From positions 23,129 to 87,128 of the forward strand of contig JAKAGT010000014.1 of assembly GCA_021825585.1 (NCBI GenBank): a DNA stretch of 64,000 bases, read 5' to 3'. Each line of letters opens with the position of its first letter. Position 1 is the first letter of the stretch. The notes under the pieces are model-generated. The model did no database searches. It was not told the origin of the DNA and worked only from the letters and a program-made list of their open reading frames with translations. The position numbers and the translations under genes were made by a program. This DNA is from Bacteroidota bacterium (GTDB lineage: Bacteria; Bacteroidota; Ignavibacteria; Kryptoniales; JAKASW01). Below, piece by piece: positions 50,717-52,297 of the stretch.

Positions 50717-50889
50717 TTAGAGCTCCTATGTTTGCGGGGCAAGAGGATGGGGCTTGTCGCACGACACATGTCCCCTACGGGTACGCGTTACTATGTCCGT
50801 GACAGTAAACTGCGTTCCGCTTTCAGACTCGGCCCGGCCACACGCGTGGGGACAAGCCAGCCAGGATTCCCGGGATGCAGTTTCAGGCG

Positions 50890-50962
50890 AGGCGACGGGC
50901 GGATTCGAACCGCCGCATAAAGGTTTTGCAGACCTCTCCCTTAGCCACTTGGGTACGTCGCC
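50890..50962 (-). tRNA. tRNA-Cys (GCA)
   Basis: Hand-folded cloverleaf: GGCGACG/CGTCGCC acceptor, anticodon arm GAGGT-CTGCAAA-ACCTT, T-arm GGCGG-TTCGAAT-CCGCC. CCA is not encoded. Confidence 0.9.
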
Positions 50963-51010: not shown

Positions 51011-51047
51011 CTGAAACCTACAGACTTAACAAAACTACTAGTTCGAG

Positions 51048-51120
<73 letters not shown>

Positions 51121-51132
51121 ATTTGTGTTGAA

Positions 51133-51161
51133 AATATAGCCGTACGCTGAAGAAAAGTCAA
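51133..51161 (-). promoter_or_regulatory. Near-consensus sigma70-type promoter for tRNA-Gly
   Basis: Minus strand: TTGACT (51156-51161), 17 nt, TATATT (51133-51138), then 12 nt to the mature tRNA 5' end. Confidence 0.6.
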
Positions 51162-51393
51162 GAACATGGAAGCAGCACGAGCGTCAGCGGGCTATTTTAC
51201 TCCCATTTGGACACCGAGCCCGCAGTGAAAAAAGGGCAATGGTATTCGACCTTTGCGGGGCTTTGCGCCTTCTTGAAAACGCTGGTCTTCCTTCAAAGAG
51301 CCTATCGCATTTTCCGGGAGAACCCACGCCTGCGCTCTGAGGTGCGCCGGCTCTTAACTAGAATGAGATACTCCGCATATTGGGTGGGTAATG

Positions 51394-51456
51394 TCGGGGC
51401 GGTGGGATTCGAACGGACGACCTTGGCGCGAAGCGCGCTACGCTCTAACCGGGCTG
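51394..51456 (-). other. tRNA-like 3' fragment (degenerate copy)
   Basis: Matches tRNA-Pro over the D-loop, variable loop, T-arm and 3' acceptor strand, apart from two T-stem mismatches (GTCCG vs CCCAC). The anticodon arm is replaced and its stem carries one mismatch, and there is no 5' acceptor strand. Confidence 0.7.
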
Positions 51457-51696
51457 TTGGGTTGTTAAGTCCATGAGGTATCTTTTCGCACCGCGTGCCT
51501 TGATTTGCTTCTCTCGCCTGACGGCCTCAGGGCGTGTCGGGAACTCTTCTGCGTGAACTAGCTGCCACGGAATACCCGGCTTTATGGATTTGGTTTCCCC
51601 TGAGTTGTGTTCGATCAGTCGATTTTCAAGATCTTCGGTACTACCCGTGTAGTATCTATCAGTCCTCTTACTATACAGAATATAGACTTTGTACAT
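51445..51696 (-). CDS. Small GIY-YIG (URI-domain, YhbQ/COG2827-like) nuclease-family protein, copy 2
   Basis: 83 aa: MYKVYILYSKRTDRYYTGSTEDLENRLIEHNSG... (GIY-YIG core, Arg, Glu, Asn). The ORF-track start at 51750 runs through the tRNA-like fragment and is unlikely. Confidence 0.8.
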   Translation of the reverse strand: MYKVYILYSKRTDRYYTGSTEDLENRLIEHNSGETKSIKPGIPWQLVHAEEFPTRPEAVRREKQIKARGAKRYLMDLTTQQPG

Positions 51697-51702
51697 CGAT
51701 CG

Positions 51703-51765
51703 TCGGGGCGGTGGGATTCGAACCCACGACCTTGGCGCGAAGCGCGCCACGCTCTAACCGGGCTG
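51703..51765 (-). other. tRNA-like 3' fragment (stems intact)
   Basis: CAGCCCGGTTAGAGCG + TGGCG-CGCTTCG-CGCCA + AGGTC + GTGGG-TTCGAAT-CCCAC + CGCCCCGA. Outside the anticodon arm it is identical to tRNA-Pro. It lacks U33 and a 5' acceptor strand. Confidence 0.7.
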
Positions 51766-52005
51766 TTGGGTTGTTAAGTCCATGAGGTACCTTTTCGCAC
51801 CGCGTGCCTTGATTTGCTTCTCTCGCCTGACGGCCTCAGGGCGTGTCGGGAACTCTTCTGCGTGAACTAGCTGCCACGGAATACCCGGCTTTATGGATTT
51901 GGTTTCCCCGGAGTTGTGTTCGATCAGTCGATTTTCAAGATCTTCGGTGCTACCCGTGTAGTATCTATCAGTCCTCTTACTATACAGAATATAGACTTTG
52001 TACAT
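51754..52005 (-). CDS. Small GIY-YIG nuclease-family protein, copy 1
   Basis: Protein identical to copy 2. The ATG lies 6 nt (CGATCG) after the tRNA-Pro discriminator base. The last 3 codons and the TAG stop lie in the tRNA-like D-loop sequence. Confidence 0.8.
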   Translation of the reverse strand: MYKVYILYSKRTDRYYTGSTEDLENRLIEHNSGETKSIKPGIPWQLVHAEEFPTRPEAVRREKQIKARGAKRYLMDLTTQQPG

Positions 52006-52011
52006 CGATCG

Positions 52012-52086
52012 TCGGGGCGGTGGGATTCGAACCCACGACCTCCTGGTCCCAAACCAGGCGCTCTAACCGGGCTGAGCCACGCCCCG
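52012..52086 (-). tRNA. tRNA-Pro (TGG)
   Basis: CGGGGCG/CGCCCCG acceptor, D-arm GCTC-AGCCCGGTTA-GAGC, anticodon arm CCTGG-TTTGGGA-CCAGG, T-arm GTGGG-TTCGAAT-CCCAC, discriminator A. Confidence 0.9.
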
Positions 52087-52297
52087 CAGGATTTAACTCA
52101 ATATAACCCATCCCGGGCGAATACAACAAGCAAAACGCGGACTTGTCTCGTGAAAAGCTTGATCGGGTGTTCATACGGGCGGGGGCCGGGTTTATGTTTA
52201 TACTGCGAACAAATAAGAAAGACCGGCAAATGGTCCCGGTTTCGTTGCATAAAAAGGGGGTGTTGGTTAACTTTCAGATTATCAATCTTCAAAGGAG

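Follow-up and report, generated by a model that had tools for sequence, protein, structure and literature searches.

Slx1-type enzymes are structure-specific DNA nucleases, and for the small UPF0213/YhbQ-type GIY-YIG proteins, though these are widespread, we found no established function. The tyrT locus of Escherichia coli has tandem repeats behind its tRNA gene, each closing with a copy of the tRNA 3' segment; they are co-transcribed with the tRNA, contain a small open reading frame (ORF), tpr, and give rise to a processed RNA, rtT RNA. Phage T4 carries the gene for SegB, a free-standing GIY-YIG homing endonuclease, between tRNA genes (PMC2330249). The tyrT locus is also mentioned in a recent preprint (bioRxiv 10.1101/2024.07.17.603846). 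Here we describe a tandem array of a small GIY-YIG gene, each copy joined to a tRNA-like piece (tL), which adjoins a tRNA-Pro gene in a 64,000-nt stretch (the window) of contig JAKAGT010000014.1 from a Bacteroidota bacterium (GCA_021825585.1, positions 23,129 to 87,128). Positions below are those of the window unless they follow an L number, which designates a homologous locus or a contig. Our full-text searches found no published description of this arrangement; most subscription journals lie outside their coverage and the result is not proof of novelty.

The best explanation of the array, held with moderate confidence as a whole, is that it is a recent two-copy expansion of a conserved cassette. 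The parts of the cassette in the window are as follows.

52086..52012, minus strand: intact tRNA-Pro(UGG), CCA not encoded (ARAGORN; Rfam RF00005 71.3 bits against a gathering score of 29)
51703-52011 and 51394-51702 (total 51394..52011), minus strand: two 309-bp tandem units, each spacer-ORF-tL (Tandem Repeats Finder, alignment)
52006..52011, minus strand: spacer 1, 6 nt, CGATCG, between discriminator A73 and ATG (sequence)
52005..51754, minus strand: proximal GIY-YIG ORF, ATG start, 83 amino acids, stop included in the span, UPF0213/Slx1 type (PF01541, E=9.5e-16)
51765..51703, minus strand: proximal tL, 63 nt (alignment; Rfam tRNA 20.4 bits, below the gathering score of 29)
51750-51765, minus strand: D-loop and D-stem 3' part of the proximal tL, containing the TAG stop (alignment)
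51733-51749, minus strand: closed arm of the proximal tL, TGGCGCG-CTT-CGCGCCA (alignment)
51703-51732, minus strand: variable loop, T arm, 3' acceptor strand and A73 of the proximal tL (alignment)
51697..51702, minus strand: spacer 2, 6 nt, CGATCG (sequence)
51696..51445, minus strand: distal GIY-YIG ORF, protein identical to the proximal one (Pfam, alignment)
51456..51394, minus strand: distal tL, adjoining unique sequence (alignment)
51424-51440, minus strand: closed arm of the distal tL, with a G>A change giving an A·C mismatch (sequence)

Read along the minus strand, the order is tRNA-Pro(UGG), spacer, ORF, tL, spacer, ORF, tL, unique sequence, tRNA-Gly(GCC), tRNA-Cys(GCA) and a phoB-like response regulator. 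Tandem Repeats Finder gave a repeat period of 309 with 2.1 copies and 98% matches at 51393-52041, and together with ARAGORN and the alignment it confirms the anatomy of a preliminary description of this DNA, which had proposed 309-bp units of an ORF plus a tL next to tRNA-Pro. The proximal tL is identical to tRNA-Pro over CAGCCCGGTTAGAGCG (16 nt of the D loop and stem) and over the last 30 nt, and the anticodon arm of the tRNA is swapped in it for TGGCG-CGCTTCG-CGCCA. The TAG stop of the ORF lies inside GGTTAGAGC, that is, it is supplied by the tL. The two units differ at six positions: three in the ORF (positions 57, 96 and 216), all synonymous, and three in the distal tL, where TGGCG>TAGCG and GTGGG>GTCCG (the 5' strand of the T stem) each disrupt a stem pair. 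The 22-nt tRNA 3' motif occurs three times in the window and never in shuffled sequence. The ORF listing of the window also holds a GTG-extended, 101-amino-acid version of the distal ORF (51445-51750, minus strand) that begins inside the proximal tL, as well as antisense ORFs across the repeat (51207-51476, 51534-51785 and 51843-52106, plus strand); these all look like by-products of the repeat and not like genes.

The cassette belongs to a family. A pattern-based scan that took one genome for each GTDB species gave 327 relatives, of which 79 loci were kept; tRNA linkage was scored on 78 ORF-selected loci with ARAGORN and tblastn. The hosts are Bacteroidota (Flavobacteriia, Cytophagia, Chitinophagia, Bacteroidales and Lewinellaceae), Ignavibacteriota and Kryptoniota. 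A tRNA-Pro on the same strand lies within 700 nt of the ORF in 64 of the 78 loci, with the anticodon UGG in 42, CGG in 15 and GGG in 7. The positions of tRNA-Pro were distributed as follows.

45 loci: tRNA-Pro directly ahead of the ORF or array (layout A, the layout of the window)
14 loci: tRNA-Pro immediately downstream (layout B)
5 loci: tRNA-Pro within 700 nt, with degenerate copies intervening
10 loci: at a contig edge
4 loci, L052 among them: no tRNA-Pro called

Most loci (65) hold a single full-length copy; two copies were found in 8, three in 1, four in 2, five in 1 and ten in 1. The ten-copy locus is L010, whose array continues beyond both ends of the examined stretch, which makes 10 a minimum. 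Degenerate copies also occur, with a premature stop in L008 (2001-2084), a deletion joining codon 3 to about codon 61 in L087 (423-460) and frameshifted or truncated downstream copies in L045 (2303-2513) and L009 (2319-2474). Association with tRNA genes and tLs among homologues is thus nearly universal and copy number is variable, in keeping with the tRNA-bound cassette that had been proposed. In L052, a metagenome-assembled genome of Lewinellaceae (1-2420), the cassette sits in the spacer between 16S and 23S rRNA genes, in the order 16S, tRNA-Ile, tRNA-Ala, a full-length closed-arm look-alike of tRNA-Ala (Rfam tRNA 38 bits), the ORF and a second tRNA-Ala look-alike.

The more distant GIY-YIG homologues that were checked (at most 48% identity), including four on viral contigs, had no tRNA nearby. 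Three such homologues rule out tRNA linkage as a general trait of small GIY-YIG genes of Bacteroidota, and the linkage is therefore specific to the subfamily, whose characteristic motifs are EHNSGETKS and KARGA. Viral contigs lack the subfamily; the scan of them gave only four distant matches of 36-46% identity, none of them near a tRNA, and carriage by phages was rejected on these matches.

The tL is the second conserved part of the cassette. In nearly all tLs beside ORFs, the anticodon arm keeps its length of 17 nt (16 or 18 nt in some tLs) and positions 32:38 and 33:37 are complementary, which turns the arm into a 7-bp stem with a 3-nt loop. This closed arm has the stem TGGCG/CGCCA in Ignavibacteriota, Kryptoniota and Cytophagia, and TCCCGC/GCGGGA, TCCTGCT/AGCAGGA or TCACGC/GCGTGA in Flavobacteriia, Chitinophagia and Bacteroidales; in every group it is unlike the anticodon stem of the resident tRNA-Pro. 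Among 19 ORF-selected tLs, all 228 of 228 cells were paired, a count that the selection itself partly fixes, and two-sided changes were seen at 7 of the 12 pairs. Pair 33:37 is CG in seven tLs, GC in seven, UA in three and UG in two. The covariation score was 0.538 against 0.177 in shuffles, with 0 of 500 shuffles reaching it, and slid controls pair at about 45%. The wobbles in the closed arm are all G·T on the sense strand, the lone A·C being the recent distal G>A of the window, and this bias points to selection on the transcript, or on that strand in single-stranded form, and not on the DNA duplex. The preliminary description had noted a different anticodon arm and a decaying distal piece. 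The arm is conserved across phyla and its helix covaries; it is neither decaying nor arbitrary, and the wobbles indicate a structure of the RNA or the sense strand.

Outside the arm, the tL follows the resident tRNA of each lineage, with T arms such as GTGGG..CCCAC, GGAGG..CCTCT, GTCAG..CTGGC and GCAGG..CCTGC and, in L052, with the sequence of tRNA-Ala, which implies that it continues to exchange sequence with the functional gene. Erosion of the tL affects its ORF-facing side. Layout A has lost the 5' acceptor strand and the D-stem 5' strand, and layout B the 3' strands of the T stem and the acceptor, in whose place stands an A/T-rich leader. RNAfold predictions for 12 units gave no conserved partner for the 3' acceptor strand of the tL, which paired differently each time. 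The Rfam alignment (51703-51802) had suggested a hidden 5' acceptor strand in the 'RGA' codons of the ORF (CGN GGN G). This candidate was ruled out, the free third positions being unpaired with the 3' strand in L001, L004, L006, L012, L021 and L022. By its score (20.4 bits, below 29), the missing 5' acceptor strand and the paired positions 32:38 and 33:37, the tL is not the complete cloverleaf with a 7-nt anticodon loop, U33 and R37 that marks a functional tRNA, and no Rfam family other than tRNA matches it. In some loci (L003, L009, L014, L015, L019, L038, L043, L080 and L081) the T loop is replaced or expanded by an extra GC-rich hairpin placed after GGTTC, for example TCCGCC-TTCG-GGCGGA or TCCCGC-TTT-GCGGGA; L081 retains a normal Pro(GGG) anticodon arm and has a large T-arm insert. 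Loops of the tRNA have thus been turned into tight hairpins repeatedly. ARAGORN calls certain tLs as tRNAs, namely tRNA-Cys(ACA) in L012 (2234-2304) and a tRNA with the 4-nt anticodon 'atac' in L052 (1875-1954). The genuine tRNA-Ala(GGC) of L145 (10671-10744) has the stem TGGCG/CGCCA flanked by GAGCG and AGGTCG, the same as the commonest closed arm, which may be a coincidence or a hint at the origin of the closed arm.

Both ORF copies match PF01541 at 58.3 bits (cut-off 22.6, E=9.5e-16), with the domain covering residues 2-69. A profile search of PDB gave 1zg2 (2e-11), 1ywl (3e-11) and SLX1 (5e-5), with I-TevI at 0.14. The AlphaFold2 (AF2) model has a predicted local distance difference test (pLDDT) value of 87.8 and the element order E-E-H-E-H-H, matching the three-stranded sheet and helices of the GIY-YIG fold; Foldseek placed UPF0213 first and then Slx1 (4xlg, 7cq3), with the I-TevI core marginal. 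Residues Y5, Y16, G18, R26, H30 and E62 are invariant in 22 sequences, and the catalytic Tyr/Tyr/Arg/Glu set is kept. In NCBIfam there was only a sub-threshold match to a group-I-intron endonuclease (TIGR01453, 18.8 bits against a cut-off of 56), and there was no match in PHROGs. As judged from its sequence and model, the protein is of the UPF0213/Slx1 type, as opposed to the UvrC, I-TevI or restriction-enzyme branches, and is a catalytic domain alone of 83 amino acids that lacks a DNA-binding domain, and by homology it is predicted to be a structure-specific DNA endonuclease. An analogy to SegB and homing, which had been drawn earlier, is weak in view of this bare domain and of the absence of the subfamily from viral contigs.

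The C-terminal residues of the protein vary and are encoded by whichever part of the tL the frame enters. The stop falls at tRNA positions 8-10 (GTG TAG CG) in L033, L074 and L079, in the D loop (GGT/GGC TAG) in the group of the window and in L052, and in the loop of the closed arm (e.g. GCT TAG GCG) in Cyclobacteriaceae. The median ratio of nonsynonymous to synonymous substitution rates (dN/dS) over 104 between-genome pairs (Nei-Gojobori, dS 0.05 to 1.2) is 0.15, which places the protein under purifying selection, and the variants in the ORF among strains of the window species are four synonymous changes and one conservative K>R. The selection on the ORFs that had been proposed from the two window copies therefore stands, and protein and closed arm are both shown to be under purifying selection.

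A nuclease paired with a conserved tRNA mimic brings to mind a toxin with an RNA antidote or decoy, akin to type III toxin-antitoxin systems or to defence. The nuclease would then act on tRNA-Pro or on nucleic acid bound in the manner of a tRNA, and the tL would be an uncleavable mimic with a sealed loop that sequesters or regulates it. The strict 1:1 ratio of ORF to tL in each unit is explained by this reading, which also fits the selection of structure on the sense strand, the retention of tRNA-like features while the anticodon loop (the T loop in L081) is selectively abolished, and the overlap of ORF and tL, by which translation would be coupled to tL folding. However, many tLs are partial, without the 5' or the 3' acceptor strand, and cannot form an L-shaped mimic; tL arrays without an ORF exist; and the setting is one of housekeeping tRNA and rRNA operons with no defence island. 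The PADLOC defence models gave no significant match (best E=0.007, 13.5 bits), and we know of no GIY-YIG RNase. We consider the toxin and decoy reading quite improbable.

The tandem duplication in the window is real and varies among strains. Contigs from other samples encode an identical or 99%-identical protein, and the unit-to-unit junction is present in the independent assemblies L082, L086 and L088, so each of these has at least two units. L088 also repeats the pattern of single-nucleotide polymorphisms (SNPs) of the window, from the proximal tL through the distal ORF (57T, 96A, 216A) and the distal tL to the unique flank. A single unit is found on the long contigs L219 (125 kb), L220 (82 kb) and L221 (21 kb), which were located through an identical response regulator and span sdhC to the regulator. 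Their ORF haplotype is 57C, 96C, 216A, which combines the 5' part of the proximal window copy with the 3' part of the distal one. Adjacent differences between the window copies are never more than 120 nt apart, which makes collapse in a k=141 assembly an unlikely source of this haplotype. An unequal crossover between copies would fit it, as would descent from a single ancestral copy.

The distal tL was earlier thought to be decaying. Its variants differ by strain, with TAGCG/GTCCG in L219, TGGCG/GTCCG in L220 and an intact TGGCG/GTGGG in L221, and in L086 a tL of the GTCCG type lies inside the array; in L087 the next copy is internally deleted. The stem-disrupting changes are polymorphisms segregating among strains, and the idea of a decaying distal piece is not supported. 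We found no zero-copy allele among the 23 contigs of the window species that carry the identical response regulator, and the exact join of tRNA-Pro to the downstream flank, which would be the empty site, had 0 matches in metagenome contigs.

A second copy produced by a mis-assembled loop would be in line with the frequency with which short-read contigs end at or inside the cassette. This is contradicted by the six positions that distinguish the copies, by the junction reproduced in independent assemblies with the same SNPs in L088, and by tandem copies in many unrelated genomes, including contigs of 1-4 Mb; an artefact is hardly credible. The two doubts that the preliminary description had left, that the duplication might be mis-assembled or the locus invariant, are thereby settled, with one unit or at least two in near-identical strains. 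Many family members were found close to a contig end, no more than a few hundred bases away (L003, L013, L016, L017, L019, L023, L030, L031, L035 and others). Contigs of the window species that break inside the ORF include L082, L223 and L224, a pattern expected if repeats fragment short-read assemblies.

An intact tRNA, a cargo and a displaced 3' fragment form the classic attL/attR pattern of attachment-site (att) duplication, and the preliminary description had noted this resemblance along with the absence of an integrase. On such a reading, an element that targeted the tRNA inserted there, left the intact tRNA and the displaced fragment and was later mostly lost. The arm, with its 5-bp inverted repeats around 7 nt, also resembles the core site of tyrosine recombinases, a pattern that Williams is reported to have described in 2002 (a paper in the reference list of PMC9897764). 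Against this, no integrase or transposase was found within about 8 kb of the array in the window, and for the homologous loci that have called-gene tables, these list no recombinase family. Cargo of the identical type and of 250 bp recurs across hundreds of species, and the layout also occurs in mirror image, where a 5' fragment precedes the tRNA. The direct repeat around the ORF of L076, about 63 nt, runs from the variable loop through the acceptor and past the tRNA through the terminator hairpin, an extent that indicates the geometry of a tandem duplication and not insertion at a fixed position in the tRNA. A remnant of att duplication is largely refuted and we regard it as very improbable.

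Arrays of tL that have no ORF were also found, with units of 76-116 nt. In some cases they occupy the interval from tRNA-Arg to the real tRNA-Pro, and others follow tRNA-Pro with a terminator hairpin in each unit; L105, L126, L136, L139 and L161 have one to three tLs ahead of tRNA-Pro and L077 has two units after it. The closed arm GAGCG TGGCGCC-nnn-GGCGCCA AGGTCG was also found fused to the 3' parts of other tRNAs with no nuclease ORF, about 25 of the 80 metagenome matches to the hairpin motif having been discarded as chance matches in high-GC coding regions. These arrays and copies are the following.

L104 8290-8615 (76-nt units), L105 11186-11564, L139 14219-14541, L121 1079-1490, L161 1924-2170 and L077 2330-2570: tL arrays of tRNA-Pro without an ORF
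L147 3620-4045: three 90-nt closed-arm units after tRNA-Ala(CGC)
L160 2294-2539: one closed-arm copy after tRNA-Ala(UGC), which itself follows tRNA-Ile
L127 4836-5240: closed-arm copies flanking tRNA-Val

Amplification thus needs no nuclease in cis. Together with the chimeric haplotype of the single-copy strains, the ORF-less arrays favour unequal homologous recombination or slippage between the tRNA-derived repeats.

Inheritance was followed with a neighbour-joining tree of 90 ORFs, in which the sequences cluster largely according to host taxon and clades differ in isoacceptor type. L001 is syntenic with the window (65% amino-acid identity), its order being Pro-ORF-tL-Gly-Cys-response regulator. 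The tree and this synteny indicate that inheritance is mostly vertical, so the active spread of a cassette multiplying at tRNA genes, as envisaged earlier, is disfavoured. The rare relocations are moves between Pro isoacceptors, one to the tRNA-Ala of the rRNA spacer, and a copy that stands alone (L020).

These data bear on a selfish cassette driven by its nuclease, an idea of the preliminary description, in which the GIY-YIG protein would cut or nick the DNA of the tRNA gene or of the closed arm and repair through the tRNA-derived repeats would copy the cassette without an integrase, giving rise to arrays and now and then to a jump to another tRNA gene. Such a cassette would account for arrays of at least 10 copies with many matches at contig ends, for polymorphic copy number and for copies that are truncated, frameshifted or cut short by a stop and that often come last in an array on its downstream side (L004, L008, L009, L021 and L045). 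Its occurrence beside genes for three tRNA-Pro isoacceptors and, in an rRNA spacer, beside tRNA-Ala, with tL flanks matching the local tRNA, is also as expected, as are the homology to structure-specific Slx1-type nucleases and the conserved catalytic residues. However, an 83-amino-acid protein has no DNA-binding or specificity domain, the ORF tree agrees with host taxonomy, and neither an empty site nor a zero-copy allele in the 23 contigs of the species was seen. In addition, tL arrays amplify with no nuclease in cis (L104, L105, L139, L147 and L077), the subfamily is absent from viral contigs, and wobbles of the G·U kind only denote selection on one strand and not a double-stranded or cruciform target. 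We judge the selfish cassette unlikely, though it deserves serious consideration. A broader form of it is a class of integrase-less elements that parasitise tRNA and rRNA operons, in which an Slx1-like nuclease would take its specificity from a closed-arm tRNA mimic (RNA or folded single-stranded DNA), cleavage and repair by tRNA homology would duplicate or move the cassette, and the ORF-less tL arrays would be non-autonomous derivatives; this seems to us doubtful.

Expression was considered from the positions of promoter-like and processing signals. A consensus scan found no promoter-like site inside the cassette or between tRNA-Pro and the ORF. In the clade of the window (Ignavibacteriota/Kryptoniota type) the ORF starts 2-9 nt past the tRNA end called by ARAGORN, 6 nt in the window, which leaves no room for an ORF promoter. 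One candidate was read from the sequence.

52100..52105, minus strand: candidate -10-like hexamer TATATT, 13 nt upstream of tRNA-Pro

This hexamer would be the only plausible promoter position for a tRNA-ORF-ORF transcript. In layout B the motif TAnnTTTG, which we take to be the Bacteroidetes -7 promoter consensus, stands ahead of tL-ORF-tRNA-Pro. The Rfam alignments show that CCA is unencoded in all three tRNAs of the window. In precursors of CCA-less tRNAs the 3' end is made by an endonucleolytic cut after the discriminator, and such a cut here would leave an mRNA with a 6-nt leader.

Taken together, we propose that the element is a conserved cassette residing in tRNA operons and made of a promoterless GIY-YIG gene of about 83 codons and a tRNA-derived tL module. 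The ORFs would be transcribed from the tRNA-Pro promoter within the tRNA precursor, and 3' processing of the CCA-less tRNA would leave a nearly leaderless mRNA. The tL hairpins may act in the sense-strand RNA in a structural, stabilising, processing or protein-binding capacity, with no decoding role. The direct repeats derived from the tRNA would let arrays lengthen and shorten, by unequal homologous recombination or by slippage, and the cassette would be inherited mostly vertically, with a rare relocation to another tRNA gene. We give this proposal an even chance of being correct.

Several points weigh against it. The neighbour-joining tree is based on 76 residues and is weakly resolved. The finder that selected the tLs demanded a perfect T stem and an arm of at least 4 bp, so the 100% pairing of the closed arm is partly by construction and pair 33:37 alone was left unconstrained. 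What we say of co-transcription, processing and near-leaderless translation is predicted from sequence. Terminator-like hairpins with a T-run stand directly before the ATG in units of Cytophagia, Flavobacteriia and Lewinellaceae, and they sit poorly with simple read-through expression.

L024 1958-2000: terminator-like hairpin before the ATG
L076 1957-2000: terminator-like hairpin before the ATG
L052 1955-2000: terminator-like hairpin before the ATG

A tL without a 5' acceptor strand or a pairing partner is no canonical substrate of RNase P or RNase Z, which bears on the release and the translation of the second ORF. Finally, a conserved and, by prediction, active nuclease with tandem amplification is also what one would expect of a selfish element.

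The surroundings of the cassette within about 8 kb are housekeeping genes, comprising sdhCDAB, a phoB/phoR/phoU-like operon, a porin and a tetratricopeptide repeat protein. The nearest features outside the cassette are listed here.

51047-51120, minus strand: tRNA-Gly(GCC), syntenic context (ARAGORN)
50889-50962, minus strand: tRNA-Cys(GCA), syntenic context (ARAGORN)
51161..51133, minus strand: sigma-70-like promoter match ahead of tRNA-Gly and tRNA-Cys (consensus scan)

Among known systems, the best sequence and fold matches to the cassette protein are UPF0213/COG2827 (BH0048, 1zg2; EF2693, 1ywl; E. coli YhbQ) and the Slx1 domain. They share with it the H-N-x-G...T...PW motif and the catalytic Tyr, Tyr, Arg and Glu, and the bacterial members are equally small and single-domain; Slx1 differs in its RING/PHD domain and its requirement for Slx4, and other UPF0213 proteins differ from the cassette subfamily, which has the tRNA-Pro linkage, the tL module and the tandem arrays. 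An invariant partner, tRNA-Pro with a covarying RNA hairpin, offers a concrete experimental handle on UPF0213/YhbQ-type proteins. SegB is alike as a GIY-YIG gene among tRNA genes and in the suggestion of a nuclease that biases the inheritance of its own locus. However, Seg and I-TevI enzymes have a C-terminal DNA-binding domain that the cassette protein lacks, its similarity to I-TevI is marginal (E=0.14), and the cassette is chromosomal in a housekeeping context, outside phage genomes and self-splicing introns, and mostly vertically inherited, with its subfamily absent from viral contigs. If the nuclease and the closed arm do drive rearrangements, it would represent a novel type of mobile cassette of very small size.

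The tyrT repeats resemble the cassette in layout only, in that they too follow a tRNA in tandem and each finish with its 3' segment; they have no apparent sequence relationship to it, no nuclease and no closed-arm module, and tyrT is a single enterobacterial locus where the cassette is a phylum-spanning family. The duplication of att sites likewise gives an intact tRNA and a partial copy as direct repeats (30 nt in the window) around a cargo; the cassette departs from it in having no integrase, a single cargo gene of 250 bp, iteration, a mirror layout and a conserved arm that does not match a tRNA. Integron cassettes are similar in combining a promoterless ORF with a structured single-strand element, in head-to-tail arrays of variable length behind a resident promoter. 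The resemblance is one of layout only, and here there is no IntI, attI or attC consensus and every unit holds the same gene.

The tLs are an annotation hazard and a likely source of spurious tRNA calls, and the arrays fragment short-read assemblies. Their use in expression would have its nearest parallels in the tRNA punctuation of mitochondrial transcripts and in MALAT1-mascRNA, although tLs are usually incomplete cloverleaves and their processing is predicted only. In those systems an mRNA is bounded by tRNA or tRNA-like structures and its ends are possibly set by tRNA-processing enzymes, and mascRNA is also alike in its non-decoding anticodon arm. If the proposed reading is true, the cassette would be a bacterial counterpart, an mRNA embedded in and probably bounded by tRNA-type structures, in one case inside the 16S-23S spacer.

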